In this document: in pieces, positions 5,585-26,823 of the stretch
Layout: each line of letters opens with the position of its first letter
How positions within the stretch are numbered: position 1 is the first letter of the stretch
Source of the DNA: a virus
UHGV virus genome: UHGV-0179428
Reading direction: 5' to 3' (one strand)
Length of the DNA stretch: 64,000 nucleotides
Made by a program: the position numbers and the translations under genes
Notes under the pieces: model-generated
What the model was told of the DNA's origin: nothing
Databases searched by the model: none
The model's input: only the letters and a program-made list of their open reading frames with translations

Positions 5585-5597
5585 GGAGAATTTTTTG

Positions 5598-8500: not shown

Positions 8501-9779
8501 TCGCTATCTGCGCATTGACCTAACTACCAAAACCTGTAAGTTGGGGATTGGTTCCCGTTCAGATTCTGCTGTTACGGATATTCCGTTAGTGATGGAGGAG
8601 TCTGGGGAAACGGCAGTGGCCGCAACGTTTAAGGATGTGTTGTTCAACGGTGAGGAAACCAACGCGGCGACGCTCGACTTGATAGGTTGGGGTGCCAGCC
8701 GAGATAAAATTCCTGCAAACCATGCACCTCGTGGCATGATTCGCTATCGTTACAACGTAAACAGTCGGGTATTACGTTTAGCACTGACGTTCTCACAGTT
8801 CGGAACGACAACAGTTAAACATCGACAGCTGGAGATTCAATTCCCGTTCGATTTAGTGGATTATTTCACTGGCGACGGTGTGGGATTGTCGTTTAAAGAA
8901 CTGTCTGCGAAATGTCGTGTAACGATTAGTCACGCGCTGATTGATCCGGCTACGAGTAACGTCGACATTGATAAGTACCATTACTTACGTTCGTTGTTCG
9001 AATCGTATCTGGATTCGTCCGTTGGGTATTTGGCTGATACCAAAGACGTTGATTTTAGTCAGTCTGTGATTGACCCTGCGACTTATGAGGTTAGTCAAAA
9101 ATACCGCGTTACAGAAAGCATCGCGCTGCCAACCGGCCAGGGAAGTGTTGCTGTTTCCCATGACGGTCAGTTGCCTGCGCAGTTCTTTGACCGTAAGCTG
9201 TCTCGTGGTGCCTTGATGGCCAAGAAAGGTGAACTCAACGCTTCCTGGAATAATGAGTGGAGCACGACTAAAGCTGCTGCGAGTCGTTATCGCCATAAAC
9301 TCATTCTACGCTTTGCACAAGGTGCTGATAAACAGCAGTATCGCGTTGCAAAAGTGGCCGGGACGGTGAAGTCTAACTGGCCGGGTAAAGTGATTATCGG
9401 TGATGCCGGGAAGGACCCGTATGTATCGGCTATTGATAGCGTATCTTTTGCGCTTTCGACCGCCTCTGATACAGGTAAAGCGATTACTCTTACGCCAAAG
9501 GACTTACGTGTAGGTCAAGACATTTATATTGTCTTAGAACCGCCCGGCAATAATCCAGAAGGTTATGAACTTAACTTCACTTGTTCGTTAGATGTCACTG
9601 ACGAGAAAAGTGTCCGTCAAGATCAACTCAATGCACAGAGTTTCGAACTCCGTAGCGGCGAAAGTCAGTTCTTAATGGAGAAACGCAACCCGTACCACAT
9701 CACGAGTAAAGCGTGGAAGTGGATTCTGGCTGTACTGAAACGAGAACTTAACGGGAAGCAGTTAGGGGATCGTACTTAG
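5598..9779 (+). CDS. giant tail fibre protein (about 1393 aa)
   Basis: ATG at 5598 after AAGGAG (track start 5595 is TTG); shared N-terminal module (RPFFEDLVV...GVDYEL); fibre motif KADLGLGQADNTADLDKPLST and HHH box; terminator follows at 9817-9854. Confidence 0.85.
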   Translation: MKAYPYDPRGTKAENHFLEERIIGSENNNDRVVILDHRPFFEDLVVRQPGSTTPLSRGVDYELQYQLTELDDSVAANVYCGVHLINPSIKGIVTFEGQMLGGTFYDPFVDILDELVKYLNNPVSADWLLLDGRPSLYPATPAATSWADLLNKKYLASAVHDIELKTDDANQLIKDKLAEVKALVTALGKEIEAFNYPAHIAAKNPHETTSAQINAHPVNLKTPDTFMAYGLKLKALTDELKAFRLPQSVIDTYISHWISSEVRGVFNCTVSGNRAQFRSKNGESEIIFANDGFTLKSNGSVVLAVGHLEGTGAGRYINWRAGKNTLRIESTGDALGMNKLTLNGNPLLTTTALMEYQQDPDAGGSGGGDPDDSKVYIEGRNGISFTGKGSRTDPIVGTIDPTKATTAEKGVVKLKTGKGTETVGVAATPASLTPYSTDLSGYVAKTTMINGKPMNDGSRTITKADLGLGQADNTADLDKPLSTELTKAVSGLADVGHHHDWSELGIYKASQSVYGIGRYATNQNGLVENRAVVPNILKELSARLSVVAAAIANAKEGTVTDFAAVKGADWRFNSQGTAISVQDLKYFYLLDGTKGDSTVTGAIDLQTTPMFNWFSPNNQLELTWATGKVSNGTGINWTGIEEPPLMGFQSVPVGKTATQMGDQSVVTVLAKTRVKAYQPKLWVYAAGGGPVTVYINGIQAATGQSPLVAVYETSSDVENYTVAVKAECSDTTKSAAVQFEVYDGDYPVYFSGPETRVELLQEFVTTHVGVRHYLYVNMLTGSLYSRAEPIQSIAVDPERGYIGYVDIVPGQSYANKTVGFETTFDFGKSAEVSEHISTRKAHGLSAVDWALTDNPRLPLLNRAIAEPRACIFRKPLATATGDVFHLVSRGLYTYAHNQNVKSSLQYVVIPEGATPYCWFTPFNPKENNAPTFEGSFAFDVDDVGGTQALAAAPDLVLCTSTQGSSVKRRYLRIDLTTKTCKLGIGSRSDSAVTDIPLVMEESGETAVAATFKDVLFNGEETNAATLDLIGWGASRDKIPANHAPRGMIRYRYNVNSRVLRLALTFSQFGTTTVKHRQLEIQFPFDLVDYFTGDGVGLSFKELSAKCRVTISHALIDPATSNVDIDKYHYLRSLFESYLDSSVGYLADTKDVDFSQSVIDPATYEVSQKYRVTESIALPTGQGSVAVSHDGQLPAQFFDRKLSRGALMAKKGELNASWNNEWSTTKAAASRYRHKLILRFAQGADKQQYRVAKVAGTVKSNWPGKVIIGDAGKDPYVSAIDSVSFALSTASDTGKAITLTPKDLRVGQDIYIVLEPPGNNPEGYELNFTCSLDVTDEKSVRQDQLNAQSFELRSGESQFLMEKRNPYHITSKAWKWILAVLKRELNGKQLGDRT

Positions 9780-9873
9780 GACAGACTGCCTGCGGGCAGT
9801 TGTGTGTCCGTAGGTAACCCCTCCCTGTAATGGGGAGGGGTATCCATTTTATTTAAAAGTAGGAGTCTTTACG

Positions 9874-12800
9874 ATGCCGAGAGAAGACGCGGCGCAGTTT
9901 AACGGTACGCTAAGCACAGTGACGTACCCTAACCGATTTAACGTGGTCATTCCGCCTGAAGGACCTTTTTATCGTATCGGATTAAAACTCACAGTAGCCG
10001 ACGATACCGCGCCTAACGGACGTCGTACTCTGATTGAGGGGTTGGACTACTATTTAGGCTATTACTTTAAAGAACTCGCAGAAGCTGAACAAGATCAGAT
10101 TTATGGCGGGTTTATGTTGCTTACTGCAACAGAAATCGAATATGAGATTTTAGGGGTAGCACGGCAGTATCGTGTACCGCAATCTGAAATCGGGAAGTTC
10201 TTAGTTCGTACTGACCTGAAAGACCCACGTAACGTGGACTGGTCGGAGTTAATGGCGTACGCGCCGGTTATTCAACCAATCGACCCCCCTGCTAACTTAG
10301 AAGAAGCTATTCTGAGGGACGAGGTCGTTAAAGCGTTGAACGATATCCGCAAGAAAATCATTCAGCGTTCAACAGAGTTAGATGCGGCCTTCACCGAAGT
10401 CACTAACCTGATTTACGAGAACGGTAAAAAGATTTTCGATGAAGAACTATACCAACACCACCTTAATCCTAACGCTCACCAGTATACGACCAATGACGTT
10501 GGGGCCCTTCCGGTTTTAGGACGTGCTGTTGACGCTACAAAAGCGTTTGGGTTGACAATTGACCAACTGGCTACGCTGATGGGTTCGGCGGGCATTGAGC
10601 AATCAGACGTTGAACAGTTAATGGGCGAAGCCCTCGGTACCGTTTACGGTCGTTGGGGTACCACGAACGGTAATGAACTAACGTTTAAAACACCGGGTGG
10701 ACACATCATCAGCATCCGTGGTGATAAGTGGTTAATTACTTCACCACAACCGTTAGTGATTAAAGCAGACCAAGACAACAACGAATCCGGTTTGGCGGTT
10801 GAGTTTAGTGCGGGGCTGAATACGCTTTGGGTACACTCTGGGTCAGAACAGGATGTATTAGCACCGGTCTATAACTCTGTGTATTTGGTTACACCAGAAA
10901 TGGTGAACATGTACCTGACGTCTGTAACGTTACTTGAAGCGAACGCCTATTTCAAATCGTCTGACACCGTAAAACCGTACGGTACAGCGAAGCAGTCTAA
11001 CCCACTAACGTTGAATGCGAATATTCCCACAGCAACCGAGTCGGTTTATGGGGTGTTTTCGATTACGAATATCGCAACCTCTGTAGCGCTAGGCACTGCT
11101 ATTTCCCAAAAGGCTGTGACCGAGTTAAAAAACCGGTTGGACTTGTACGTTGATGATAGCTACACGGTTAACGGTAAAGGGTTTGTTAAGACAGGCGACA
11201 ACATGGTGTTAACCTTAACGAAGGCCGATTTCGGTATCGATAAGATGAATAACACCACACCCATCGCTAAACCGGTAACAAAAGCATTAGCGAACGTGCT
11301 GAAAAATAAAAGTTTGAAGGTACACACGCACACTACCGCTGATTTGGATAATGTCCCGATTGGTAGCGCAACAGTGGACGGTATCTTACAGCTGTGGGAT
11401 GCGATTGATACCACGAATGATAAAGCCGTTACATCACGCCAAGGGTGGTTGTTCGCAAAAGAGATTAAGAAGGTCTCTGATAAACTGAATACCCTCTTGC
11501 CCGCATGGACAACGGCCGGGAGCAAATATACCAACAATTCGATATTGCCGATCTTGTCGATGGGTAATTACGAAGGTTATGGTAAAAACATGGATGCGCT
11601 CCAGATGGTTATAGGGGTACAACAAGGTAAGCTTTACGCTTTAATTAGTTCTAAATCTGCCCTTCCGGGAACTGAGGGTATTTATTACGCTGTTGCTGGG
11701 TTAAAAAACGACAAAAGTCTCGGTGAAATTTACAAAACAACTTTCCGTTATAAGCCGAAAGGGTTAGAGACGAATTATCCGGGGGTGGAACTAAAAGAAA
11801 TTACCGTTACTGGTACCGAAGCATTTATAGCGAAGGGCAGCGACGATAATTATTATTTAGTTAAACTGAACGGTTCAATGGATTACACCAAACATACCGA
11901 TGTCAGGTTGGTAACTTTCTCAGAATTTGTTTCAGAAACAACATGGGAATTTGTGCCGAATATGTTCATGGATCGTGTGGTCATAGCCGATAACGGCGTC
12001 TATGTTTTGCGTACGATGCTAATGGCCGATCTGAAAAACAATAGTCTGGTGGACTACATTAAGGATACTCCGCAACCTATGTTCCGTGTTGGGTTATTGC
12101 GGCTTAATAAAACCGATCGGTTTGAACAGGTTGATTTAAGCTCTACACGAAAAATCGGTAAGTGTGCCGATTTGGTTGAACCTGGCGCGTTCGATGTAGA
12201 TAATCCGAATACGAAGCGTCTTGCCTACTTCACTGCGGAAGGCAAAGCGTTGTGGACAGTGAATTTACAATTAACTAGAGGGGTGTCAAGATGGATAACG
12301 CCCGTTGTTAAGGACGGTCACTTGTTAACCGTCGGCGTGTCTGGCGTTTGTCTTGGTTTTTCTTCAACGAAAGGTACCACATTCGGGCCATGGAATGGTG
12401 CTTATCGTCTCGACCTATTAACCGGGGAGGTTGGGTTAGAGACAACTAACATCTTCCCAATCAAAATCGATACTACAGGTTGCTACTTAAAAGACGGAAC
12501 AAAAATAGAGCTGAAATGGAAATGGGCTACTCGAAGTTCTGGCTATATGACCGACAATAGAATCTGTGTCGGTGATATGGTTTATTCTTGCTGCTGTTCG
12601 ACAGAAAAACAACTTGCACCATCTCTCCATTACCAGAAACTCCCAGAAGGAGTTAGTTATCTGGACTATGTTAAGTTGAGTGCGGGGTATGAGGGGCAAT
12701 CTACGTTTGAAAATCGGATAAACCCTGTGGTGGGTTCGGTGTGGAAACCGTCTATGACCTTCCCATTGTTCTTCCCAGGAACAAACAAAGTATGGCTTAA

Positions 12801-15060
12801 ACATCAAAAAACGGCTTATTTCATTGAAGCCGAATATGATAAAGATACGACTTATGGTTATCCTGGATACGGCGGGTTTGGACCAACATCCCGCCGTGTT
12901 GAAAAAAAAGCGAACGAATACGGCGTATTGACAAATATACCGCTGGTTGTTACGCCAGACATACCGAAAGGTCTACTAGATGGGGCTTACTTTATCGGTG
13001 CTGAAAGTAAACCATGTAAAGTTGTTTACGGTACCACTACGGTGGCTAGTGATCGGTTGTCTATCGATGCGGCAGAATGGGCGAAGTTGACTAATATTGT
13101 TCAGTCCAGCCAGTTCTCTGGGGCTTCTAACGGCAACGCCTATGAGCGGATTAGCGTAGCTAAGACCAAAAAGAACAACTACAGTTTGTCCTTTTGGGTG
13201 CTTGGTCAAACGATGTCTGGTGGTCCGCTTTGTATCGCGATAGTGAGTCTTATCTATAAAGACACTGACGGGGTAAATAAGTTTGCTTTTTACTTCTTTC
13301 AGGTAAAACCGACTATAACCAACGGGGTCATAAGGTTCGTTAGTTCGGAAGCGAGAATGATGACGTTCAGGGAAAAAGTGGCCAGTAACGCCATTAATCT
13401 CTCACCCACAGCTTTTAATGGTGAACTTAAACAACGCTCCGGTCAAGTTTTCCTTTATTCGCAAGACGGACAAAAGTTCAGATTCTCAATACATAACCTG
13501 GTTGGCGGGAATCTTGTAGGATCAGAGATTTCTTTTGCTTTTGGGATAAACTTGACTAAAAAAGGAGAATGGTTTACCGGCGAAATTCATCGGGCGTGGG
13601 GCTATACGTATACGCTGAATAATACATCTGAAGTCTATATACCCGATCTCTCGGGCATCGCGCTATTGACTTGTAACTCGGAAGATTTAAACGAGTTGTA
13701 TCTCGGTGGCGAACAGTATAGAATCTCTGATTTGTTTAACAAAAAATATACTGTTATCGATAAGATTATTATTGGCGGCGTACAAACACAGAGCGGTTGG
13801 AATTTCTATCTGACGGAGGAAACCGAGTTAAGTTTTGGAAATAAAAGATATACCGTTCCAAGATGGTCCGTTGATTTAAGCGATGAATTCCCGACTAATC
13901 ACGCTAACCAGACATTCTACGTTTATGCTGAAGTGGTCGGTTCTACTGCCCAATACCGCATCGGTTTAGAGCAGTTAGCTGATACCTCGTCGAGACTGTT
14001 TGTTGGGACAGTAACCACTGATTCGAACCGTATTACGGATATCAGTATCGATAAAGTAAAACGGTTAGGTCGTGTAAAAGAGCTGGAAAATCATGCCTCG
14101 GTTGTTGATCAGCACGATGTGGCGCAGGCGTTCGACAGGAAAACTGGTCCACTATTAACAGTGGTTAATAAACCCGTTAAAGCCATTACAGCATCTGCGA
14201 GCAAGGGTGCTGGGTATGTCGATGGTCAGAAATGGAATACGTTGTCCGGGATTGCAACGCGGCCCAGGTTGCCGGTACAGGAAACCTATTCAGGTTATAA
14301 AAGTATCAGCAGGGTGGCGTATGAGAACTGCGCTGACCAGTTCTGGCAGAAAGCGGTTGCTGCGAACGTTGCAGCGGCTACTGCTTCTGAGAACAAACAA
14401 GCAGCAACCGCGAACATGAAGTGGTTGGGTGCGTATACGAAACCGACTACCGGCGAGTATGCATATCTGGCATTGAGTCTGCGTGTTAAAGTACCTGGCG
14501 ATCCTGGTACTACTAATCGTCGACTGAAAATCAGGCTTGCGGCCCCGACAGGTATAACTCAAGTTCGTTACGGGCTAAATCAGTCTGGCGGTACGATGAC
14601 TGAACAGACAGTAACATTAACTGCTAACAGCTATCTGGAAAAAGAACACGCCGGATTTAAGCCAGCCGAAGAAGTCCGTGTACATGCTACGTTTGTCATT
14701 CCAAAAAATGAATACGATAGCTACCGTACGAAGTTCGGTGCTGTTCAGCTGATTGACGTTGAGTCGAACACTGTCATTAAACAGACAGATATCGACACAC
14801 CGTTTATCGTGTATACCGACACGGAGTTAGCAGCACAATCTGGTTTGGTGTATAAAGCGGTTAAGGGTCAGTTCCATCAACTCCCGTCTCAACCTGTCGT
14901 CATTGTAACTGATGGACAGACAGGGACTACGCCACCGGTGAAAACCTCGTTTGCTGACGGGACATTAACGGTCTACGTGGCAACCACGTACGACGCGGTG
15001 AATCCAGCACAAACGCGCGATATCGATAAGCTCCAGTTCAATCTTATGTTTACATCTTAA
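9874..15060 (+). CDS. giant tail fibre protein (1728 aa)
   Basis: AGGAG RBS; shared N-terminal module (GPFYRIGL...GLDYYL); fibre motif KADFGIDKMNNTTPIAKPV and HTHTTADLDNVP. Confidence 0.85.
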   Translation: MPREDAAQFNGTLSTVTYPNRFNVVIPPEGPFYRIGLKLTVADDTAPNGRRTLIEGLDYYLGYYFKELAEAEQDQIYGGFMLLTATEIEYEILGVARQYRVPQSEIGKFLVRTDLKDPRNVDWSELMAYAPVIQPIDPPANLEEAILRDEVVKALNDIRKKIIQRSTELDAAFTEVTNLIYENGKKIFDEELYQHHLNPNAHQYTTNDVGALPVLGRAVDATKAFGLTIDQLATLMGSAGIEQSDVEQLMGEALGTVYGRWGTTNGNELTFKTPGGHIISIRGDKWLITSPQPLVIKADQDNNESGLAVEFSAGLNTLWVHSGSEQDVLAPVYNSVYLVTPEMVNMYLTSVTLLEANAYFKSSDTVKPYGTAKQSNPLTLNANIPTATESVYGVFSITNIATSVALGTAISQKAVTELKNRLDLYVDDSYTVNGKGFVKTGDNMVLTLTKADFGIDKMNNTTPIAKPVTKALANVLKNKSLKVHTHTTADLDNVPIGSATVDGILQLWDAIDTTNDKAVTSRQGWLFAKEIKKVSDKLNTLLPAWTTAGSKYTNNSILPILSMGNYEGYGKNMDALQMVIGVQQGKLYALISSKSALPGTEGIYYAVAGLKNDKSLGEIYKTTFRYKPKGLETNYPGVELKEITVTGTEAFIAKGSDDNYYLVKLNGSMDYTKHTDVRLVTFSEFVSETTWEFVPNMFMDRVVIADNGVYVLRTMLMADLKNNSLVDYIKDTPQPMFRVGLLRLNKTDRFEQVDLSSTRKIGKCADLVEPGAFDVDNPNTKRLAYFTAEGKALWTVNLQLTRGVSRWITPVVKDGHLLTVGVSGVCLGFSSTKGTTFGPWNGAYRLDLLTGEVGLETTNIFPIKIDTTGCYLKDGTKIELKWKWATRSSGYMTDNRICVGDMVYSCCCSTEKQLAPSLHYQKLPEGVSYLDYVKLSAGYEGQSTFENRINPVVGSVWKPSMTFPLFFPGTNKVWLKHQKTAYFIEAEYDKDTTYGYPGYGGFGPTSRRVEKKANEYGVLTNIPLVVTPDIPKGLLDGAYFIGAESKPCKVVYGTTTVASDRLSIDAAEWAKLTNIVQSSQFSGASNGNAYERISVAKTKKNNYSLSFWVLGQTMSGGPLCIAIVSLIYKDTDGVNKFAFYFFQVKPTITNGVIRFVSSEARMMTFREKVASNAINLSPTAFNGELKQRSGQVFLYSQDGQKFRFSIHNLVGGNLVGSEISFAFGINLTKKGEWFTGEIHRAWGYTYTLNNTSEVYIPDLSGIALLTCNSEDLNELYLGGEQYRISDLFNKKYTVIDKIIIGGVQTQSGWNFYLTEETELSFGNKRYTVPRWSVDLSDEFPTNHANQTFYVYAEVVGSTAQYRIGLEQLADTSSRLFVGTVTTDSNRITDISIDKVKRLGRVKELENHASVVDQHDVAQAFDRKTGPLLTVVNKPVKAITASASKGAGYVDGQKWNTLSGIATRPRLPVQETYSGYKSISRVAYENCADQFWQKAVAANVAAATASENKQAATANMKWLGAYTKPTTGEYAYLALSLRVKVPGDPGTTNRRLKIRLAAPTGITQVRYGLNQSGGTMTEQTVTLTANSYLEKEHAGFKPAEEVRVHATFVIPKNEYDSYRTKFGAVQLIDVESNTVIKQTDIDTPFIVYTDTELAAQSGLVYKAVKGQFHQLPSQPVVIVTDGQTGTTPPVKTSFADGTLTVYVATTYDAVNPAQTRDIDKLQFNLMFTS

Positions 15061-15100
15061 CGCCACGAGACAAGGACGTCTCGGATTAAGGAGAGTGGCC

Positions 15101-16300
15101 ATGGCCTCCATTGTATACCAATACCCTTTAGATTTAACGGGAAGCCTAACCTCTAACGCCGTGGAGCGTCAGGTTACGTTAGGTACAGGTAAAGTTAACC
15201 GTGCGTTTGCTTTTCCTGATGGACCGTTTTATGCCGATACGTTCCGCTTGCGGGTTGCCAACCGACCCGATGCGACGTATGAGCGCGGAACGGACTATGA
15301 GTTGATTTTTGCACATCCGGCTTACGAGAAATTGACGAAGAACCGGGAAGTGGTAATGGCGGTTGTTGTAACGAACACCGCCATTCCGACCGATATCACG
15401 GTATCGGCGCAAGTAGTCGGGGGTCCGCAGTCTGCAAACGTGACTGCGATAGAACAGGCGATTGCTGAGTTGAATCTCGATAATCGAACTGTCGGCTTTA
15501 AAGACTTGCGAAATGTTCCTGATACATTTCCGTCAGCACCAACGTATAAAGACGTCGGTGATATTTACGGTTTCGAATATATCATTACAGTGCTCGCTGG
15601 CATTAAAGATGCGATAACGGCGGGCGATGCTGTACAGCTTGAGAACATCAAAGCGATTCTCGAAAGCCTGAAAAACGATTTCCTGGACGCGCTGAACGCA
15701 CACATTAACGCCACGGGTAACGTCCACCATCTGGATATTCACCAGGTTAACGGGTTAACAGAAACGGAGATCCGTGCACTTATCCGTGATGTACAGTCTG
15801 CCATCGATGCAACCATTACCGATATTAATGCGTTGAAGAAAGCAGATGAAGCGTTAGGAAAACGTATTGATGCTGTTGTCAAATCTTTGGAAGCGTGGAA
15901 CGACCAACTTAACATCGTTGCACAAAACTACCAGAAAATGGCATTGGCATTGGCGAACCTAAATTCGTTAGTGTTACAGTTACAGAAAAATATCAACGAT
16001 CTGAACACCAAACTCAACCAAGCGATTCAGCGCATTGCTGCGTTAGAACAGCGGGGTAATGAGTCCGATCAGAAAATTGATAATCTGCAACAAAACCTGG
16101 ATGCGCTTAAACAACAGGTTGCGAATAACACGAACGCAATCAGTCAGGCGAATCAGAACCTACAAAACCATATTGCGGCAGATAACCCACACACGGGCTA
16201 TCTCCACAAGAAATACGGTGGTGTGGTTCAGGCTCCAGTGCACGTTAACGCTAACTTGACGTCCCGTGATGACGTTCAGGCAGAAGCGGGTACGAAATAA
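15101..16300 (+). CDS. coiled-coil fibre/needle-like structural protein (about 399 aa)
   Basis: ATG at 15101 after AAGGAGAG (track start 15095 is GTG); shared N-terminal module (GPFYADTFRL...GTDYELIF); long heptad-like Q/N/L-rich coiled-coil region. Confidence 0.8.
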   Translation: MASIVYQYPLDLTGSLTSNAVERQVTLGTGKVNRAFAFPDGPFYADTFRLRVANRPDATYERGTDYELIFAHPAYEKLTKNREVVMAVVVTNTAIPTDITVSAQVVGGPQSANVTAIEQAIAELNLDNRTVGFKDLRNVPDTFPSAPTYKDVGDIYGFEYIITVLAGIKDAITAGDAVQLENIKAILESLKNDFLDALNAHINATGNVHHLDIHQVNGLTETEIRALIRDVQSAIDATITDINALKKADEALGKRIDAVVKSLEAWNDQLNIVAQNYQKMALALANLNSLVLQLQKNINDLNTKLNQAIQRIAALEQRGNESDQKIDNLQQNLDALKQQVANNTNAISQANQNLQNHIAADNPHTGYLHKKYGGVVQAPVHVNANLTSRDDVQAEAGTK

Positions 16301-16310
16301 CTTTATTACA

Positions 16311-16355
16311 GGAGGAACTATGCTTATGGGCGTAGTCCTCCATTCTTTTTTATTT
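16311..16355 (+). terminator. rho-independent terminator-like hairpin plus T-run between the fibre gene and the Cys-rich peptide genes
   Basis: Imperfect inverted repeat GGAGGAACTA...TAGTCCTCC followed by ATTCTTTTTTATTTT. Confidence 0.5.
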
Positions 16356-16367
16356 TAAGGATACGTG

Positions 16368-16763
16368 ATGGCGATCAGTGTTAAAAATGTACGTGACCGA
16401 ATCACCAACGTAGAGAACCAAATGGCAACTGGCCCACGTGTTGATCCGCAAGTTGCGTCGAAAGCACATAATGCCGCCGACACTTTTTCGGGTTGGACGC
16501 CAAGTCGGTTAGACTGCGGGGGGAGTTGCAGCTGGACGTGCTCAAACGGTTGTACGCATGGCTGTACGAGTTGTTCGGGCACCTGTACGTCAGTGTGTGT
16601 AGGTAGCTGCTCCTCTGCGTGCGGTAACCAGTGTACTGGATGTAGTTCAACGTGTTCCGGTGGCTGCTCAGGTTGCAGTGGGACCTGTGGGGGTGCTTGC
16701 TCGGGCCGTTGTTCTACGGGTTGTTCTGGTGCTTGCTCTGGTGGCTGTTCTGGCCCAACCTAA
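16368..16763 (+). CDS. Cys-rich repeat peptide A (131 aa), candidate radical-SAM substrate/precursor
   Basis: ATG after AAGGA RBS; N-terminus MAISVKNVRDRITNVEN, junction DCGGSCSWTCS, then about 80 aa of C-x3-C repeats rich in G/S/T; paralogous to the next two ORFs. Confidence 0.8.
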   Translation: MAISVKNVRDRITNVENQMATGPRVDPQVASKAHNAADTFSGWTPSRLDCGGSCSWTCSNGCTHGCTSCSGTCTSVCVGSCSSACGNQCTGCSSTCSGGCSGCSGTCGGACSGRCSTGCSGACSGGCSGPT

Positions 16764-16773
16764 GAGGTGAAAA

Positions 16774-17172
16774 ATGGCAATTGGATTACCTGCGCTACAA
16801 GCGCGGCTAAATAACATTGACAACACTGCATTGAAGAATACGGGTGCAGTACAAAACTATATTCGTGGGAAAGCGACGAACAACGCAGACTTATTCGGTG
16901 GGCAAGCTCGCAACCACTATGACTGTGGTGGGAGCTGTAGCTGGACCTGTTCGAGCTGTTCTGGTGGTTGTACAGGGAACGCATCAGGCGGCTGTGGTTC
17001 TTCCTGTTCTGCAAACTGTGTATCAGGTTGTAGTGCAGGCTGTAGTGGATGTTCGAATACCTGTTCTGGTGGCTGTTCAGGAAGCTGTACGGGGAGTTGT
17101 TCTAACTCGTGTGTAGGAAACTGTTCTGCAGGCTGCTCAGGTAGTTGTTCTGGTGGGTGTTCTGGGAGGTAA
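16774..17172 (+). CDS. Cys-rich repeat peptide B (132 aa), candidate radical-SAM substrate/precursor
   Basis: ATG after AGAGGTGA; N-terminus MAIGLPALQARLNNIDN, junction DCGGSCSWTCS, about 80 aa of C-x3-C repeats. Confidence 0.8.
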   Translation: MAIGLPALQARLNNIDNTALKNTGAVQNYIRGKATNNADLFGGQARNHYDCGGSCSWTCSSCSGGCTGNASGGCGSSCSANCVSGCSAGCSGCSNTCSGGCSGSCTGSCSNSCVGNCSAGCSGSCSGGCSGR

Positions 17173-17174
17173 TT

Positions 17175-17381
17175 GTGATTAGCCTTAAGAACCTTCGTGA
17201 TCGGTTAGTAACAGCGGAAGGGTATATTACGACCGCTAACGCAAACAACTATATTGCAAACCAGGGCACTGTGTCTTCAACCAATAACCTTGCCGGTTTA
17301 CCTTTAAGCCATTATAACTGTAACGGTGGATGTAGCTGGTCGTGCAGTGGTAGCTGTAGTAAAGGTGCGGGGGGAAGGTAA
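17175..17381 (+). CDS. Cys-rich peptide C (68 aa), short paralog of A/B
   Basis: GTG at 17175 five nt after GGGAGG, three nt after the stop of peptide B; N-terminus MISLKNLRDRLVTAEG, junction NCNGGCSWSCSGSCS, then only 8 more residues. The track start at 17145 is an upstream in-frame artefact. Confidence 0.65.
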   Translation: MISLKNLRDRLVTAEGYITTANANNYIANQGTVSSTNNLAGLPLSHYNCNGGCSWSCSGSCSKGAGGR

Positions 17382-17530
17382 CTAAGCCCTCCAGTGGTAG
17401 TATGTCTATTACGCAATAACCGAGTTAATTGTACGGGTTTACTACTGAGTTTCAAGTCACCGGTAGGCAATGGCGCGGTGGTTTCTATACCCTGAATGTC
17501 CGTTTGACCGTGAAATAATTGGAGCAATCA

Positions 17531-18418
17531 ATGAAGAATGATTTACATTTAGCGTACAAAACAATTTTCAATCATCCACTTCACATTTCTTCCCCTGATT
17601 CCGTACGTGCACACTTAGCAGATGAAGTTCGTCTGCTGACTCAGTTGCCGGGCGAATGGCCTAAAGTGCGCGGACGTTTCTTTACCGATCGTAAAAACTA
17701 TCGTGTAGAAAATACGTTTAAGATTCGTGATCTGACGGCAGAAAGTGTAGTGGTCTTTACCGGTGACTCCGAGTTGCGTGGTAAACTGGTTGCGGGTAAA
17801 TATTTCTTTAGTGACGGGATTTTGAATAACTCCGTAGATATGGAATTGTTCTTTACCCCATTTGAAGAAATGGGCGCAAAACCGGTTGCCCGTCGTTGGT
17901 GGTCACCGGATTACTTAGGCTCGTTCCCGTATTTCTTTACCCTGGTAACACCAGAAACGAAGAACTATTTCGATACGGAATCGTATATCGAAATTGAAGG
18001 GTACGAAGCGTTAGGGATTAATTGCTTAGCGGATTTAATGGCGTATAGCTATAAGTTCGTGTGGGATCGTGAACGTTCCGTGTGGGTTGCCCTGACGGAT
18101 GAACACGAAATCACAAAACGCATCCGTAAGCCTTGGATGCAGCATTTGATTCAAACGCGTATTGGCGAGCATCCGTCAACAGAAGCGGATCTGGCAAAAC
18201 TCGTTAGTTTCTTAATGACGAAAGTCACGTTAACTGACGAAGAGAAAGCAGCAGTGTCGGCGGTGTTGGACCGTAACGTAACGTTAGCGGATTTAGAACG
18301 TTTAAATGTCCGTTATAAAGACCTTAACCGTGTTTTGGAAGCGTATAACTCTCCATTTTTGTTAACCCCTGGTGCTAACGTAGACGACGATCCTTTGTTC
18401 GCCATTGATTATATTTAA
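17531..18418 (+). CDS. hypothetical protein (296 aa) inside the Cys-peptide/radical SAM locus
   Basis: ATG at 17531 seven nt after GGAG (track start 17519 is TTG); no recognisable motif; sits between the precursors and the radical SAM genes. Confidence 0.75.
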   Translation: MKNDLHLAYKTIFNHPLHISSPDSVRAHLADEVRLLTQLPGEWPKVRGRFFTDRKNYRVENTFKIRDLTAESVVVFTGDSELRGKLVAGKYFFSDGILNNSVDMELFFTPFEEMGAKPVARRWWSPDYLGSFPYFFTLVTPETKNYFDTESYIEIEGYEALGINCLADLMAYSYKFVWDRERSVWVALTDEHEITKRIRKPWMQHLIQTRIGEHPSTEADLAKLVSFLMTKVTLTDEEKAAVSAVLDRNVTLADLERLNVRYKDLNRVLEAYNSPFLLTPGANVDDDPLFAIDYI

Positions 18419-18439
18419 AAACGACCGGAGTCACCTGCA

Positions 18440-19363
18440 ATGACAACCAATGCAGAACCAAGGTTATCGAATCGTTTATACGATAAACCCACCGTATTGT
18501 CCGTAGTCGCTACGTCCAAGTGTAACCTGGATTGTAGCTTCTGCGGTGGAGCCTATTACATGAATCGTGAAGATTCTCCGCGAGAGTTTCAACGTGAGCG
18601 AATTTTGGAAGCGCTGGAAGCTAATCCAACCATTACCGAAATTCAGTGGACGGGTGGTGAGCCATTACTGGCAACCCGTAAAATTGAGGCGTTTGTTGAC
18701 GAATTAAAAGTGATTCGTCCAGAACTCAAACACCAGTTGTATACCAATGGCTTAAAGATGCGTAAATCGCATCTCCCGTTGCTAAAACAGTTTGACAATG
18801 TCTACGTTAGCATCGATGGGTTTAAGTCGTCTGAGCGCCCGTTTATGCGCTTTATTGACGAAGGCTGTTACGAAGCACTGGAAACGATCTACGAGCTGGA
18901 TAATGTCCAGACTTGGGGTGTCCTGACACGGGACCGTTTAGGGGACAAACGCTGGCACGAAGATATTATTCAGCTGCACAGCGCGATTTACCATTACGGT
19001 TTCCGTGCAATGACGTTACTCTTAGATGCGAAAATGCCAAAACCTTTATCGCCTGACCACGTCATGAACTTTATTTACGGCTACTATCAGGTTCAGGACA
19101 ACATTGAACGGCTGAATGTAGTAAATAGTCGTGAATGCGGCTTTACGGTAAGTAAAGTGTTTGAAGAAGGGTGTAACGTTTGCAGCGAAAGTCTTTGGAT
19201 TAATGCAGACGGTGGTGAGCACCAACTCCAGAATGCACCTAACGTTCTGGAATCGGGATGTAACCAACTGGCCTTCTCTATCGGTGTAGAGGCGTACGAA
19301 TATATTCGTCGTGTGGTGATGGCAGGGCGTAATAGAGGGGCGGCAAATGAGTCAAGTAAATGA
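18440..19363 (+). CDS. radical SAM enzyme (307 aa)
   Basis: CNLDCSFCGG (CxxxCxxC) near the N-terminus, GGEPLL glycine-rich motif, VSIDGFKSSERP segment, additional C-terminal cysteines (CGF...CNVC...GC). Confidence 0.8.
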   Translation: MTTNAEPRLSNRLYDKPTVLSVVATSKCNLDCSFCGGAYYMNREDSPREFQRERILEALEANPTITEIQWTGGEPLLATRKIEAFVDELKVIRPELKHQLYTNGLKMRKSHLPLLKQFDNVYVSIDGFKSSERPFMRFIDEGCYEALETIYELDNVQTWGVLTRDRLGDKRWHEDIIQLHSAIYHYGFRAMTLLLDAKMPKPLSPDHVMNFIYGYYQVQDNIERLNVVNSRECGFTVSKVFEEGCNVCSESLWINADGGEHQLQNAPNVLESGCNQLAFSIGVEAYEYIRRVVMAGRNRGAANESSK

Positions 19364-20669
19364 ATTCCCTAAGCAGTTAACGTATCAGATCGTAACCAAC
19401 CTTTCGTGTAACCTGGACTGCGAATATTGTTACGAACGTAAGTACCCGCGTAACAACAAAGCGGCTGACATTGTTGATTTCTTACACGCCTGTTTTGAAC
19501 GTGATAAAAACGAACCGAATGTTGAAGTTATTATCGACATTATCGGTGGTGAACCGTTCATGCAGCCTAAACTGCTGTTGGCTGCGTTTGAAACCGCTGA
19601 GCAGTTGTGTAAAGAACACAACCGACCGTTTATGTTTAGTATCTCCACGAACGGAACGCTGTTAGATCGTCCGTTGAACCGTGAGATTGTAGAACGTTGG
19701 AAAGATAAACTTTCGGTTGGGGTTTCGATTGATGGCTTACCTGAATCCCATGACCGTTATCGTATCTTCACAACAACACGCCAGGGTTCTTACGAAGCCG
19801 CAGTACGTGGCTATAACTACTTAAAAGAGGTTGGCATTGCAGAGCTCGGCGTAAAAGCAACCTTTACGTTAGAAACGCTGCCGTTCTATGCTGCGGGGAT
19901 GAAGTCATTAATTGACATTACTGGCGGTGGGACAATTTCTGGAAACGTAACTTTCGAAGACGTTATGCCACGTAGCATGGCGACGTCAATCGCTTTACAG
20001 ATGATGGATGTGATAGATTACTGGGTTGAGAAAGGATTACACACCAACCCACGTAATATCCTATCGCATATCATTCCAGAAGGGTTGGATTTCGACACGA
20101 TTTGGGAACCGAACTGGCGTGACCAGTTACTGTATAATGACACCGTACGGTTGAACCCGGAACGCTTACGTCCGTTCTGTGGGACGTTAACGCACATGAC
20201 GTGCTTAGGGTTTGACCGTAAGATCTTTGGCTGTAACCGCTTTATGTCAACGGTAACGTCGCGTTCTGCGGTGTTTGAGTTGGTAGGTCGGGAATTCGTC
20301 AGTCTGGACAACGGTAAATTGTTAGAAGAGATTCAAACGCAATATACCAACTACCCAGAGACCTGTTTAGGTTGTCCGATGAAACACGCTTGTGGTAGCT
20401 GCGCAGCGGCTTCTTACGAGAACGGGGAAGGAACGTTAGAAGACCGTAAAGCGTATCACGCTGAACGACGTCAGTGTGGCTGGACGACAGCGAAACTGAT
20501 GGTGGCGGAATACTGGAAACAGAAGATGGGTACGACGTCAGCAAAAGCGTTCCACGACACGAGTATGTGTTATTGCCCACGCTGTGTTCGTGAACGTGCC
20601 CAAAAGGAAAAATTATTAAGAGAAGCCAAAGATGAAACCAATTCTGATCAACAATATTACGAAGCGTAG
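19347..20669 (+). CDS. radical SAM enzyme with SPASM-like C-terminal Cys cluster (440 aa), anSME/peptide-maturase-like
   Basis: CNLDCEYCY (CxxxCxxC), GGEPF, SIDGLPESHDRYR, C-terminal CLGCPMKHACGSC plus further cysteines; overlaps the previous gene by 17 nt. Confidence 0.8.
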   Translation: MSQVNEFPKQLTYQIVTNLSCNLDCEYCYERKYPRNNKAADIVDFLHACFERDKNEPNVEVIIDIIGGEPFMQPKLLLAAFETAEQLCKEHNRPFMFSISTNGTLLDRPLNREIVERWKDKLSVGVSIDGLPESHDRYRIFTTTRQGSYEAAVRGYNYLKEVGIAELGVKATFTLETLPFYAAGMKSLIDITGGGTISGNVTFEDVMPRSMATSIALQMMDVIDYWVEKGLHTNPRNILSHIIPEGLDFDTIWEPNWRDQLLYNDTVRLNPERLRPFCGTLTHMTCLGFDRKIFGCNRFMSTVTSRSAVFELVGREFVSLDNGKLLEEIQTQYTNYPETCLGCPMKHACGSCAAASYENGEGTLEDRKAYHAERRQCGWTTAKLMVAEYWKQKMGTTSAKAFHDTSMCYCPRCVRERAQKEKLLREAKDETNSDQQYYEA

Positions 20670-21204
20670 AATTCGACTTCTGGATAAGTTTCTGGAAAAC
20701 AGTAAGCTATTTGGTTGTTATGTGGTGATTAACGGTGAAGATTTTACCGATGACGTAAAACGCTTGCTGATTCGTCACGGTGTGACTGTAATCATCCCAA
20801 TGTACTGCACCGAACTTACTGACCTGTCGGTCGCGGAAATTGAAAAACGTAACCCAGGGTTTGAAGAACGGGTATTGGATTTCCCACGTCACAAAATTGC
20901 GTTTCTACGCCGCTCTTTAAGCGAACCCAGCGCAGAATCTATCACTGTGTTGGCATTGTCCTTCCCCGGCATTACTATCTTCGCAACACGTAACCCGAAC
21001 TCACCGATTGATGGGTTTTACGATGAGCGGGAGAAATTTAATACCGTGATTTTTCCTGAGCTAACGCCAGAAGAATGCCAGGGTATCCGTATCGATTGGG
21101 AATCGGACTTCGACACAAGATTCCGTCATATCGATTTTGAACTGTTAATCGAATTAGGGTTGATTAAAGGAGACGATGAATGTCTGCTACTGGTGAAGGC
21201 TTAA
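20632..21204 (+). CDS. hypothetical protein (190 aa)
   Basis: ORF overlapping the 3' end of the SPASM gene by 38 nt; no motif recognised. Confidence 0.6.
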   Translation: MKPILINNITKRRIRLLDKFLENSKLFGCYVVINGEDFTDDVKRLLIRHGVTVIIPMYCTELTDLSVAEIEKRNPGFEERVLDFPRHKIAFLRRSLSEPSAESITVLALSFPGITIFATRNPNSPIDGFYDEREKFNTVIFPELTPEECQGIRIDWESDFDTRFRHIDFELLIELGLIKGDDECLLLVKA

Positions 21205-21851
21205 CGAAAGAAGAAATCCGTCGCCGTTATTTTGCGCATGATTTACCGATTGACCGTCATGGTAACTACATGGAGAAAATCGGTAGCGAAGATCACGGCC
21301 GTACAGGGTTTTGTGCGTTACTGCACTATAAGCTGATTGATGGGATGTCTGATCGCGAAGCATTGGAACAAATGCGTAACTACGACATGTCTGAAATCGA
21401 AGCACGGTTTACGCTACAGAAAGCGAAAGACTTTGTTAACGACACGTTGGGAATCGACCTGGAAGAAATTCGTACAGGTTTACGTTCCACGGTGCGGTAC
21501 ATCTTTACCGATGTTCAGAAAATTCTAAGCGCTCTGGAATTCCGTTATCAGGATGCACGCTATGCTGAGATTCAGGTAGGTGATTTCACTTTCCAGGCAG
21601 ATGAGAAGTCACAGGTAGCATTGAGTCGTTATATCCAGTCAGAAACTGCGCCAGCGTATTGGTTAACGGCTAACAACACCCGTATCGAACCGTTTACGTT
21701 AGAACAGTGCAAGACGTTGCTGGCAGCAATCGTTGAGCGTGATCAAAGACTACATCACGCAATGTCTGAGCAGAAAAGAGAAGTCAGGGCTTGGGCTGAA
21801 GCACGTGATTACGATTCGATAAAAGCGTTTGCGTTAGAGCAAGGGCTGTAA
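21180..21851 (+). CDS. hypothetical protein (223 aa)
   Basis: ORF with AAAGGAG RBS; last gene of the plus-strand block. Confidence 0.7.
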   Translation: MSATGEGLTKEEIRRRYFAHDLPIDRHGNYMEKIGSEDHGRTGFCALLHYKLIDGMSDREALEQMRNYDMSEIEARFTLQKAKDFVNDTLGIDLEEIRTGLRSTVRYIFTDVQKILSALEFRYQDARYAEIQVGDFTFQADEKSQVALSRYIQSETAPAYWLTANNTRIEPFTLEQCKTLLAAIVERDQRLHHAMSEQKREVRAWAEARDYDSIKAFALEQGL

Positions 21852-21874
21852 TCGACAGCGAAAAAAAAATAGTA

Positions 21875-21915
21875 TACCTACCTCCCGTAATAGGAGGTAG
21901 GTATTTTTATTTTTC
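21875..21915. terminator. bidirectional rho-independent terminator at the strand-switch point
   Basis: Perfect hairpin TACCTACCTCC-CGTAAT-AGGAGGTAGGTA flanked by an A-run upstream and TTTTTATTTTT downstream, between convergent gene blocks. Confidence 0.75.
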
Positions 21916-21930
21916 TGTTGTTGATTTTCA

Positions 21931-22461
21931 TTAGGCTGGAGTAAAACCGTCAAGTTCACTATTTAACGTTGACATGTCCGTAACAACACGTAGCGTCAGT
22001 GTGCACAAAGACCCAGGTTGAAATTTGAGATTACCACCTTTAACGTTACAGTTATACAGGGCTGTAGATTCTGTTACTGCGCCTTTAGCGATTATAACCT
22101 CACCTACCGCAAACTCATCGTCAACCCAACCGCGTTTCTGAATCAGCTCGTTGAGAATAGCGACAATCTGATCGTTATTCTTTTCAAGTTCTTCAGCAGT
22201 GGCTACATTGTAAGTTTGTGGGCCTAAAACATTAACCCCGGGAATTCGGGTATAGTGGAATACTTTAGAGCCTGTGAAATTTGCAGATGTGGGCCGTGCG
22301 GTGAGCGTTACTTGCGCGTTGCGGGAACTACCAGGTTCTGTAGGCTGGTAGTTGGCAACGCCTTCACCAAAGTCAACATCCTCTAAAGTCAGTGGTGCTT
22401 GAAGCTGATTGTTTTTAAGGTTTATTAAATCAATCAGCTGTTGTTCAGTGCTTTTAGCCAT
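21931..22461 (-). CDS. ELDGFT-family paralog (176 aa), probable virion-associated protein
   Basis: N-terminus QQLIDLINLKNNQL...LTLEDVDFG, C-terminal ELDGFTPA; paralogous to the two ORFs upstream. Confidence 0.75.
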   Translation of the reverse strand: MAKSTEQQLIDLINLKNNQLQAPLTLEDVDFGEGVANYQPTEPGSSRNAQVTLTARPTSANFTGSKVFHYTRIPGVNVLGPQTYNVATAEELEKNNDQIVAILNELIQKRGWVDDEFAVGEVIIAKGAVTESTALYNCNVKGGNLKFQPGSLCTLTLRVVTDMSTLNSELDGFTPA

Positions 22462-22529
22462 GGTAGCGATTTCTCTATCGTGAACTAAAAGATCTGGGGG
22501 TTAACACCCCCAGACGGTTCTTTTGGGAT

Positions 22530-23060
22530 TTAGGACGTAAAGCCGTCCAGCTCACCGTTGGTGGTAGCCAGGTCAATACGTTTGTCTTCCACTTTCGGGG
22601 TAATAACAAACGTTGCCATTACACCTGGTTTATAACGGAGGTTCTTTTCAGTAACAGTACACGTTACCGTACGCAGAGTAACGTTTTCATGTTCGTCTTT
22701 CTGGTCTTCGGTAGAATAAGAAACGTCCGCTGGATGAATAGCATCGTCCGGTTTAACTTTATTGATGTAATATTGTAACCATGCGCGCAATTCGTTTTGA
22801 TCTTCCCAACGAGACAGATCGTCAGTTAGTTCAATACGACCTACAACACCCGGTTCCAGACGATCGTAATGCAGTTCGATTGCGCCTTTGAAATTCTCAG
22901 AACCTGGTAGTGCAGTCATGGTAACTTTGGTATTCTTACCTTCGCCTTCCAGCGCAGTAGGGAGACCAAAGGACACTTCTTTATCAGTAATCTGATGTGG
23001 TAGCTCAGTGTTAGCAGCATTATAAAGCGCGACCAACATCATCTGGTTAGTAGCGGCCAT
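22530..23060 (-). CDS. ELDGFT-family paralog (176 aa)
   Basis: C-terminal GELDGFTS; same architecture as neighbours. Confidence 0.75.
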   Translation of the reverse strand: MAATNQMMLVALYNAANTELPHQITDKEVSFGLPTALEGEGKNTKVTMTALPGSENFKGAIELHYDRLEPGVVGRIELTDDLSRWEDQNELRAWLQYYINKVKPDDAIHPADVSYSTEDQKDEHENVTLRTVTCTVTEKNLRYKPGVMATFVITPKVEDKRIDLATTNGELDGFTS

Positions 23061-23125
23061 TATCTTAGATCCTTAATAATACGTTTTAAAGAAATATCGG
23101 GGGAGGACACCCCCCCCCGATTCAA

Positions 23126-23668
23126 TTACTCTTTAGGACTCGGTGCAGTGAAGCCCTCGAGCTCACCATCCAGGCTGTCCAGAGCTACCTTCTGAGGAGC
23201 CGGTACACGGTACTGGTAATTTGCAATCATACCAGCCTGGAACTTGATATGACCTTCTTTTACCTGTACAGTATAGTTGAAACCGCCTTCACCTGCATCA
23301 GTTTTCTGGATTTCCAGTTCTTCTGCGATAAAGGCATCATCGACATAACCTTTAGTAATCATGTCGGCATTCAGTGCAGCTACGATAACATCGTTAGCGA
23401 CATCAGTAGTTGCATCAGTAACGGTTTTCACACCGATTAAAGATTCGGCGACCAGACGGATATAATGGAACTCTTTGCTTCCGGTAAAGTTAGCGCTTTC
23501 GTCTTTTGCAGTCAGGACAACTTTAGTATTACGGTTGTCATCTTCGCCAGAAGGACTATAAAGTTCTACAGTACCGAAATTAACATCGCCAACAGTCAGT
23601 TGGTGTTCCAGGGAACCGTTTTTGGCATTAACGGCGTCAATAAGTTGCTGTTGAAAAGCTTTAGCCAT
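23126..23668 (-). CDS. ELDGFT-family paralog (180 aa)
   Basis: N-terminus QQLIDAVNAKNGSL, C-terminal GELEGFTAP. Confidence 0.75.
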   Translation of the reverse strand: MAKAFQQQLIDAVNAKNGSLEHQLTVGDVNFGTVELYSPSGEDDNRNTKVVLTAKDESANFTGSKEFHYIRLVAESLIGVKTVTDATTDVANDVIVAALNADMITKGYVDDAFIAEELEIQKTDAGEGGFNYTVQVKEGHIKFQAGMIANYQYRVPAPQKVALDSLDGELEGFTAPSPKE

Positions 23669-26333: not shown

Positions 26334-26810
26334 TTATTTCTTCTTAGCGCGTGATGGCTTAGCTGGCGGTGTTTCAACAGTCGGTTTACGCGCAACACGC
26401 ACTGTAAAACCACCGACCCAGGTTAGGCACTCAGGACGGAAGAAAATGCCGTGCTCGATTGCACTGCCGTCCAGCGGTAACTCACCAACCTGCTCTACCC
26501 ATACGTCGTCTTCAGTAAGGGTTAAGCCATACTGCTCGTTAATTACAGGCAACAGGTCCGCAGTCGTGGTTGCTGTCTCAACTAACAGTTTCGGCAATAC
26601 GTTGAGGAAATACAAACCTGCATCGATACGATTATACTGGAACGTTTGCTTATTAGCATAACCGAGATTCTTAACCGCCACAACCGTAATTTCGGTGTTG
26701 TACGCACCGGTACTTACGACGGGCTCACCCAATGTAACTTTGGCGGTGTCAAGCTCAGCGTCTGGGTTAGCCTTTTTAATAAGGTCGAAGATAGTTTCTT
26801 GACTGGTCAT
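26334..26810 (-). CDS. ELDGFT-family-related protein (158 aa)
   Basis: N-terminus ETIFDLIKKANPDAELDTAKVTLGEP resembles the family N-terminus; basic C-terminal tail. Confidence 0.65.
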   Translation of the reverse strand: MTSQETIFDLIKKANPDAELDTAKVTLGEPVVSTGAYNTEITVVAVKNLGYANKQTFQYNRIDAGLYFLNVLPKLLVETATTTADLLPVINEQYGLTLTEDDVWVEQVGELPLDGSAIEHGIFFRPECLTWVGGFTVRVARKPTVETPPAKPSRAKKK

Positions 26811-26823
26811 TACTGTAATCCTC

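Follow-up and report, generated by a model that had tools for sequence, protein, structure and literature searches.

What are the three small cysteine-rich proteins that a jumbo phage encodes directly upstream of a pair of radical S-adenosylmethionine (SAM) enzymes? The question is raised by the UHGV virus genome UHGV-0179428, of which a stretch of 64,000 nucleotides (the window) was analysed, and it concerns three consecutive open reading frames (ORFs) at positions 16368-17381, here termed peptides A, B and C. A preliminary description of this DNA had read them as precursors of peptides that are ribosomally synthesised and modified after translation (RiPPs), with a conserved leader and a core of variable length. 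Directly downstream of the peptides come one accessory gene and then a pair of radical-SAM genes, one of them with a full SPASM domain, distantly related to TIGR04115 and PapB; this gene context makes it very likely that the peptides are enzyme substrates. Since the same cysteine tail ends the tail fibers of many other phages, they are probably enzyme-cross-linked parts of the fiber apparatus rather than free antibiotic-like peptides. We favor, with modest confidence, a reading in which A, B and C represent a cysteine-repeat fiber module matured by radical-SAM enzymes, present here as free-standing mini-fiber proteins.

All three ORFs are found on the plus strand where the preliminary description had placed them, with the following layout (aa, amino acids).

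16368..16763, plus strand: peptide A, ATG start, 131 aa; a 49-aa N-terminal part and an 82-aa tail with the end CSGGCSGPT
16512..16544, plus strand: junction of peptide A, DCGGSCSWTCS
16774..17172, plus strand: peptide B, ATG start, 132 aa; a 50-aa N-terminal part and an 82-aa tail
16921..16953, plus strand: junction of peptide B, DCGGSCSWTCS, with KATNNADLFGGQARNHY immediately before it
17175..17381, plus strand: peptide C, GTG start, 68 aa; a 48-aa N-terminal part, the junction and then 10 residues
17316..17348, plus strand: junction of peptide C, NCNGGCSWSCS

The mechanical ORF of peptide C begins at TTG 17145; the GTG at 17175 is backed by the orthologues and by a GGGAGG ribosome-binding site. 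The general plan proposed earlier, an N-terminal region of ~ 50 residues followed by a near-invariant junction and a tail with cysteine at every fourth residue, is borne out in A and B, while several of its details required correction. The junction had been written as (D/N)C(G/N)GGCSW, which captures the motif apart from its fifth residue, actually S or G. The RDR element is present in A and C and is replaced by QAR in B, and the N.AD.F.G element occurs in A (NAADTFSG) and B (NNADLFGG) and not in C (SSTNNLAG). Only 8 residues had been counted after the junction of peptide C, two fewer than there are. An alignment of 21 A, B and C sequences shows no variation at junction residues C50, G52, C54 and S55 and almost none at W56.

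Beyond the junction, A and B run for ~ 70 more residues made of Cys, Gly, Ser and Thr. The 82-aa core of A holds 21 cysteines, spaced by four residues in 17 of 20 intervals and by three in the rest, and the core of B, of the same length, holds 20 (spacing of four in 16 of 19 intervals); peptide C has four cysteines in all. The regularity of the A and B cores was reached by none of 200,000 composition-preserving shuffles, for which the maximum was 10. Cysteine accounts for 25% of the core, compared with a background of 1.15% in the long ORFs of the window, and both cores are devoid of Asp and Glu.

Homology searches offer a greater level of detail about where such modules occur. With A, B, C and four homologues as the query, a profile search returned 355 cluster representatives. 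Cysteine runs are present in 138 of the best 147, and in 101 of these 138 the run stops no more than 15 residues short of the C-terminus. Peptides A, B and C stand alone at 68-132 aa, whereas the homologous module mostly forms the C-terminal end of longer proteins, those of the best 147 measuring mostly 100-1000 aa. An extended junction, N[A/D]xxLxG[Q/K]xxxxYY[R/D]CxxGCSWTCS, is found in ~ 45 protein clusters. Among the long profile matches, 5 or 6 of 10 combine N-terminal parts matching PHROG tail-fiber or tail families with phrog_6085 at the C-terminus. The PHROG matches of A (1.5e-40), B (4.7e-38) and C (2.3e-24, spanning profile positions 2-66) are all to this same phrog_6085, a family without assigned function. 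The shared junction and cysteine module (phrog_6085) link the three peptides to recognised tail-fiber proteins; they contain no other fiber domain.

This link becomes clearer in the metagenomic and prophage neighbourhoods; nine kinds of context were inspected overall. Distant homologues of the large radical-SAM enzyme (33-40% identity) are located in bacterial prophage tail modules. In a P2-like prophage of Campylobacter pinnipediorum, a tail fiber of 384 aa (Pfam Phage_tail_fib) ends in a cysteine-repeat tail (...MGCNGCSGSCSGSCSSGCTACSGCSGSCSGK...), and its gene is followed by a 250-aa homologue of the accessory protein P299 and two radical-SAM genes, the whole being flanked by baseplate and sheath genes. 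A Deferribacter prophage encodes, after a GpJ-like gene, a 302-aa fiber with His-x-His/RYYTE repeats that ends in KATNADQLGGQAGSYYRCSDCSWTCSS and ~ 28 cysteines; a P299 homologue and two radical-SAM genes follow here as well. At the place equivalent to KATNADQLGGQAGSYYRCSDCSWTCSS, peptide B has KATNNADLFGGQARNHYDCGGSCSWTCSS, and the stretch before its junction, KATNNADLFGGQARNHY, is near-identical to KATNADQLGGQAGSYYRC of the Deferribacter fiber. Two further loci (L018 and L021) display a T7-tail-fiber-like gene, then a cysteine-repeat peptide of ~ 79 aa, a P299 homologue and one or more radical-SAM genes, and on another metagenomic phage contig a coiled-coil protein with a terminal cysteine tail precedes the same cassette. 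In a gut phage (L013), a cysteine-repeat protein lies among tail-fiber genes and adjoins a genuine TIGR04115 enzyme.

Overall, prophages of myovirus-, siphovirus- and T7-like type carry the cassette in their tail modules, and in every context examined the cysteine module adjoins a P299-family gene and radical-SAM/SPASM genes. The conserved unit is a cysteine-repeat module together with P299-family, small radical-SAM and SPASM genes, usually inside tail modules. As the motif N.AD.L.G....Y.C..CSWTCS occupies the same place in tail fibers, the segment first taken for a leader is best explained as the conserved boundary between the fiber shaft and the C-terminal cysteine-repeat module.

The free-standing arrangement is also present in an unrelated metagenomic phage (L011), where two long peptides and one short one (15, 16 and 2 cysteines) precede homologues of P299, of both radical-SAM proteins and of P190, the next gene of the cassette. 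This locus, like L012, additionally contains a third radical-SAM gene (394 aa, 4651-5835) ~ 5 kb upstream, a gene with an Acb2/Tad1 hairpin (an anti-defence sponge) at 9600-9821 right before the peptides, and a GroEL-like gene downstream.

The phage of the window is a jumbo phage and a relative of Salmonella phage SPN3US (~ 72% DNA identity across the enzyme genes), and the cultured-phage collection holds no close match to it. The A-B-C trio is retained with full synteny, in the same order and at near-equal lengths, in 10 related phage loci from five genera (SPN3US, SPAsTU, Stratton, Asesino, pSal-SNUABM-04, Huxley, CR5, Phobos, Wellington and pEa_SNUABM_11). Differences from SPN3US fall on the third codon position in 68 of 129 cases for A, 76 of 134 for B and 39 of 53 for C. 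Relative to the orthologues, nonsynonymous divergence (dN) is ~ 0.1-0.3, while synonymous divergence (dS) is saturated. Judged by this conservation and codon-position pattern, A, B and C are real genes, and spurious ORFs of low-complexity DNA are ruled out as an explanation for them. The overlapping ORFs in the wrong frame or on the opposite strand, on the other hand, are spurious in this sense.

Many deposited genomes, namely those of SPN3US, SPAsTU, CR5, Phobos and Huxley, are mis-annotated in this region, with wrong-frame or opposite-strand ORFs called over the cysteine-repeat DNA and A and/or B missing. The mis-called coordinates are 8426-8761 in L001 (SPN3US gp100 / SPN3US_0166), 6589-7410 in L006, 6700-7437 in L008, 6832-7044 in L004, and 6862-7002 and 7168-7446 in L003.

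A leader-plus-variable-core architecture predicts an N-terminal part that is conserved and a core that varies in length. When related loci are aligned, the N-terminal part is conserved no better than the core, and core length hardly varies. For peptide A, identity to the three closer genera is 65-79% in the N-terminal part and 71-72% in the core; in the distant genera, the core is the better conserved of the two (62-67% compared with 40-42%). Peptide C is the most conserved of the trio, with 87-89% identity to its Seoulvirus orthologues. Peptide A carries 21 cysteines in 11 of 11 jumbo phages from five genera, even though spacings of three and four residues swap; B carries 20-23 across genera, and C, always short, has 4 or 2. 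Purifying selection is uniform along the three proteins, and cysteine number is fixed. The repetitive tgt-tct-ggt-ggc DNA to which possible length variation had been ascribed was overstated, consisting of three weak 12-nt arrays of 2.0-2.7 copies (Tandem Repeats Finder) with mixed Ser and Gly codons. Fixed cysteine counts, weak DNA repeats and the recurrence of the trio in the unrelated phage L011 together indicate a constraint on length, with the short form maintained as a paralogue in its own right. The uniform conservation that had been named as speaking against the variable-core idea is largely what we observe with respect to length; the cysteine periodicity is nonetheless kept in the orthologues. 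The RiPP-precursor reading stands insofar as the peptides appear to be substrates of peptide-modifying enzymes, and fails as a conserved leader attached to a core of variable length.

The genes following the peptides, as well as those around them, are arranged as follows.

17531..18418, plus strand: P299, an accessory protein of 295 aa without known domain; always between the cysteine-module genes and the radical-SAM genes
18440..19363, plus strand: small radical-SAM protein, 307 aa; PF04055 (6e-14), CX3CX2C and three conserved C-terminal cysteines
19347..20669, plus strand: large radical-SAM/SPASM protein, 440 aa; presumed to be the maturase that forms the cross-links
20632..21204, plus strand: P190, 190 aa, no known domain; phrog_7988, probably a cassette member
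21180..21851, plus strand: DUF4376 protein, 223 aa; PF14301 (5e-11), weak PHROG tail-fiber/tail matches, last gene of the co-directional block
21874..21904, no strand assigned: bidirectional terminator-like hairpin closing the block, with a 12-13 bp stem and T-runs on both strands, between convergent gene blocks
9874..15060, plus strand: upstream tail protein, 1728 aa
15095..16300, plus strand: upstream coiled-coil virion structural protein, 401 aa

The cassette lies inside one co-directional block, flanked by tail/fiber genes and the DUF4376 gene. In SPN3US, the homologue of the 1728-aa protein is gp168, a tail protein similar to phiKZ gp131, which is located close to the fibers on the periphery of the baseplate (PMC5105663). 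The plus strand displays no terminator-like site over 14800-21874, and an attenuator of the RiPP type (promoter/terminator) between peptide C and the enzyme genes was rejected for want of such a site there. Peptides, P299, small radical-SAM gene, SPASM gene and P190 are syntenic across the five jumbo-phage genera; P190 is retained in all the jumbo phages and has a homologue at the same position in L011 (1e-12). In the cultured-phage collection, peptide B occurs in 62 records and the enzyme in 63, and the organism breakdowns match save for one enzyme-only faecal phage. For P299, the ATG at 17531 is favored by 295-aa homologues and a GGAG site over the mechanical start at TTG 17519. In the scan of Pfam and NCBIfam, no above-threshold match was obtained for A, C, P299 or P190.

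The conserved cysteines of the small radical-SAM protein are 28, 32, 35, 245, 248 and 274, and its homologues adjoin a homologue of the large enzyme in L011, L016, L017, L018 and L019. In the large enzyme, the CX3CX2C motif (C21/C25/C28) is accompanied by C278, C286, C296, C340, C343, C349, C352 and C377, which are conserved in 8-9 of 9 homologues; by this cysteine pattern, it has a full SPASM domain. The radical-SAM motif begins at residue 21, which leaves no room for an N-terminal domain. A PqqD-like RiPP recognition element gave no domain match in the cassette. The best-scoring characterised family is PapB (116.8 bits, cut-off 340). The enzyme also aligns to TIGR04115, the "radical SAM peptide maturase, CXXX-repeat target family", over model positions 3-345 of 359 with 114.7 bits (cut-off 350); since this score lies under the cut-off, it is placed in a sister clade and not in the family itself. 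Its relative in the gut phage L013, at 378.6 bits, exceeds the same cut-off. The nearest solved structures are CteB (5wgg, 5.8e-14) and then the anaerobic sulfatase maturase. In terms of these profile and structure matches, the enzymes are of the peptide-maturase type. The partner of TIGR04115 is the target model TIGR04114 (Pfam PF27846, tSAM_targ_Cxxx_rpt), the pair having been defined in silico. With a cut-off of 20, peptide B scores just above it (20.4) and peptide A below (14.5), and C gives no match.

Based on these observations, we hypothesize that each of A, B and C combines a short fiber-like segment at the N-terminus with a junction for recognition (N.AD.L.G....Y-C-x-G-x-C-S-W-T/S-C-S) and a tail with cysteine at every fourth residue, on which a dedicated maturation cassette of four or five genes, encoded directly downstream, would act. 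P299 may dock on the junction and present the tail to the enzymes, in the manner of a tail-fiber chaperone or a RiPP recognition protein. By analogy with PapB and CteB, the SPASM enzyme would then use the regularly spaced cysteines to form numerous small thioether rings or connections between chains. The second radical-SAM protein might cooperate with it, as two radical-SAM enzymes are reported to do in thuricin CD (PMC12093266). The expected product is a stiff, protease-resistant rod retained on the fiber apparatus. The N-terminal part would accordingly not be a disposable leader, and the intact product would belong or attach to the tail-fiber and baseplate apparatus. In most other phages, junction and tail would form the C-terminal module of the tail-fiber protein itself, while in the SPN3US-like jumbo phages the module appears to be split off as two long paralogues and a short one, each standing free. 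These possibly form one heteromer, which may assemble via N-terminal helices and junctions. Gene reality, conservation, the strict association with the enzymes, the enzyme class and the homology with tail-fiber C-termini are shown here, while the thioether chemistry, the role of P299, the presence in the virion and the formation of a heteromer are inferred. It is conceivable, although we would not yet call it probable, that many tailed phages apply RiPP-type radical-SAM chemistry to their own particle, yielding a "cysteine ladder" at the fiber tip, with the two-long-one-short heteromer as the jumbo-phage version.

Several observations weigh against a matured fiber module. The large enzyme is far below the cut-offs of both TIGR04115 and PapB. 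The Asp/Glu acceptors used by PapB (PMC9413430) are absent from the phage cores. In PHROG and Pfam, A, B and C matched no named tail-fiber family, phrog_6085 being the only hit. AlphaFold2 gave no confident fold for peptide A (predicted local distance difference test, pLDDT, of 39), with a weak N-terminal helix at residues 5-21 only. The model of P299 matched no known structure significantly. In L011, no recognisable tail gene is located within 10 kb of the cassette. Finally, the published virion proteomes of SPN3US could not list the peptides because they are unannotated in that genome.

The main rival is a classical diffusible RiPP, in which the radical-SAM enzymes would be guided by a leader of ~ 50 aa that is later cut off, and lysis would set free the cross-linked core to act as a bacteriocin, a signal or an anti-defence molecule. 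We regard this as unlikely, even though it accounts for a good part of the locus. The layout is leader-like and core-like, with several paralogous precursors beside SPASM-type enzymes; a modifying enzyme is adjacent to the precursors and co-occurs with them; peptide B reaches the target cut-off of TIGR04114; and in L011 the cassette adjoins the anti-defence gene and not recognised tail genes. Thuricin CD reportedly also pairs two radical-SAM enzymes with two peptides (PMC12093266). However, when compared with Pfam, NCBIfam and PHROG, the cassette genes include no recognisable peptidase, transporter (exporter) or immunity gene, although a host protease could possibly act instead. The supposed leader is conserved no more than the core, and the number of cysteines is fixed rather than diversified. 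In addition, the leader motif runs within tail-fiber proteins of 200-1000 aa, where it cannot be a leader, and the cassette occupies tail modules of three prophage types.

In a second alternative, the modified peptides would act as a transient template or chaperone for the neighbouring 401-aa and 1728-aa fiber proteins and would not be kept in the particle. Their genes do occupy the usual position of tail-fiber assembly genes, downstream of the fiber genes, and the module is encoded as a separate protein in the jumbo phages and in L011, L018 and L021. Yet the module covalently forms the C-terminal end of the fiber in many phages, which fits better with a permanent structural or receptor-binding tip, and no self-cleavage motif was seen. 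Consequently, an assembly factor appears rather improbable.

Less probable still is a metal-binding protein, of a metallothionein-like, Fe-S or zinc-ladder type, in which the cysteines would stay free and the radical-SAM enzymes would act elsewhere. A core with one cysteine in four among small residues would suit such a function, and metal-stabilised fiber needles are known, as in the His-x-His iron sites of T4 gp37. This is difficult to reconcile with the constant adjacency of cysteine modules to P299-family and radical-SAM/SPASM genes and with the placement of the enzymes in peptide-maturase clades. The weakest explanation, a contingency locus at which slippage or recombination would lengthen and shorten the cysteine-repeat DNA, is already largely refuted and barely credible: the variation in B between genera, the interchange of spacings and the shorter cores of L011 could be read in its favor, but the arrays of at most 2.7 copies with mixed synonymous codons, the constant 21 cysteines of A despite saturated synonymous divergence and the stable conserved paralogue C leave slippage ruled out as a source of length variation.

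The proposed fiber module can be compared with several known systems. The CXXX-repeat system shares a target with cysteine at every fourth residue beside a radical-SAM/SPASM maturase, to whose model the window enzyme aligns along the whole length. It differs in that the window cassette adds a second small radical-SAM protein, a P299-family protein and P190, and its family name and short description in NCBIfam and Pfam include neither the C-x-G-x-C-S-W junction nor a link to tail fibers. To our knowledge, no member of the CXXX-repeat family has been characterised biochemically. The closest mechanistic model for the tail is PapA/PapB (freyrasin, a ranthipeptide), in which PapB forms six thioethers in the repeated Cys-X3-Asp motifs of PapA, one small ring per repeat of 4-5 residues (PMC9413430). 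In contrast to PapA, the phage cores are without Asp/Glu acceptors and contain 20-21 repeats rather than six, and there is no sign of leader removal or export.

The SCIFF maturase CteB and the sactipeptide maturases (TrnC/TrnD of thuricin CD, RumMC1/2 of ruminococcin C) are likewise SPASM-domain, thioether-forming enzymes acting on cysteine-rich peptides. Two radical-SAM enzymes reportedly serve a pair of peptides in thuricin CD (PMC12093266), and two are reported to be used for ruminococcin C (PMC8188230). The window enzyme is, however, far under the cut-offs of these families, and the phage substrates are longer, strictly periodic and homologous to tail-fiber C-termini.

On the virion side, tail-fiber assembly and adhesin genes such as T4 gp38/gp57A and Tfa of P2 and Mu sit downstream of the fiber genes, and covalently or metal-reinforced virion parts include the HK97 capsid chainmail and the T4 gp37 iron-binding needle. 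The first group shares with the present cassette the position right after the fiber genes and the notion of a helper dedicated to the C-terminal tip of the fiber; the second shares the notion of a virion part strengthened through unusual bonds. No sequence similarity or significant structural similarity to proteins of these types was found with Pfam, PHROG and the P299 model.

Full-text literature searches brought up no paper that deals with these peptides, with the CXXX-repeat family or with tail fibers as targets of radical-SAM enzymes; phage papers give such radical-SAM enzymes only as accessory genes without function. We know of no description so far of radical-SAM chemistry on a virion protein. 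The most novel supported aspect of the locus is its tail-fiber connection. If the proposed maturation takes place, it would be the first case in which an enzyme installs thioethers to reinforce a virion protein, and it would join two separate fields, namely peptide cross-linking by RiPP radical-SAM enzymes and the structure and host recognition of phage tail fibers. It would also give a biological role to the uncharacterised in silico family TIGR04114/TIGR04115, account for the function-less accessory radical-SAM genes of the phage papers, and offer a new route to extremely stable fiber tips with a bearing on phage engineering and peptide-stapling enzymes. In most deposited genomes, the peptide genes are either left out or wrongly annotated. 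For SPN3US, an amber-mutant genetic system and virion proteomics exist, which makes maturation of the fiber module directly testable (PMC5105663). An example of an N-terminal tryptic peptide from the A/B/C set is ITNVENQMATGPR.

Periodic cysteine tails also occur on a different scale. A set of very large proteins (P0173, 1610 aa; P0175-P0177, P0179 and P0180, 1582-1803 aa; P0249, 834 aa; P0181, 934 aa) displays cysteine at every fourth residue over hundreds of residues, with up to 163 cysteines in runs behind large unrelated N-terminal parts. On the metagenomic contig L020, two paralogues of the large enzyme (2398-3576 and 6001-7251) lie among large proteins without assigned function, and no cysteine-periodic run was detected there; the substrate pattern may be a different one.

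An apparent second locus in SPFM14-type records, with P299 paralogues and another radical-SAM gene, turned out to be an artefact. Several SPFM GenBank records look corrupted, for example LR535912.1 (Salmonella phage SPFM14, 87917-107958), which bears the description "XXX.". The encoded proteins read like ordinary SPN3US-type proteins in which the order of blocks of ~ 14-20 residues is reversed, which would fit an inversion of the sequence lines. This block reversal results in matches in pieces of ~ 42 bp only and in false "paralogues" in protein databases.

Genuine small paralogues are arranged in tandem on the minus strand of the window, as three genes at 21931-23668 and two at 26334-27672. 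They encode proteins of 158-282 aa with similar N-termini (e.g., MAK..QQLIDL.N.KN), and all three members of the first group share the ending ...LDGFT. Both groups flank lysis- and tail-assembly-like genes.

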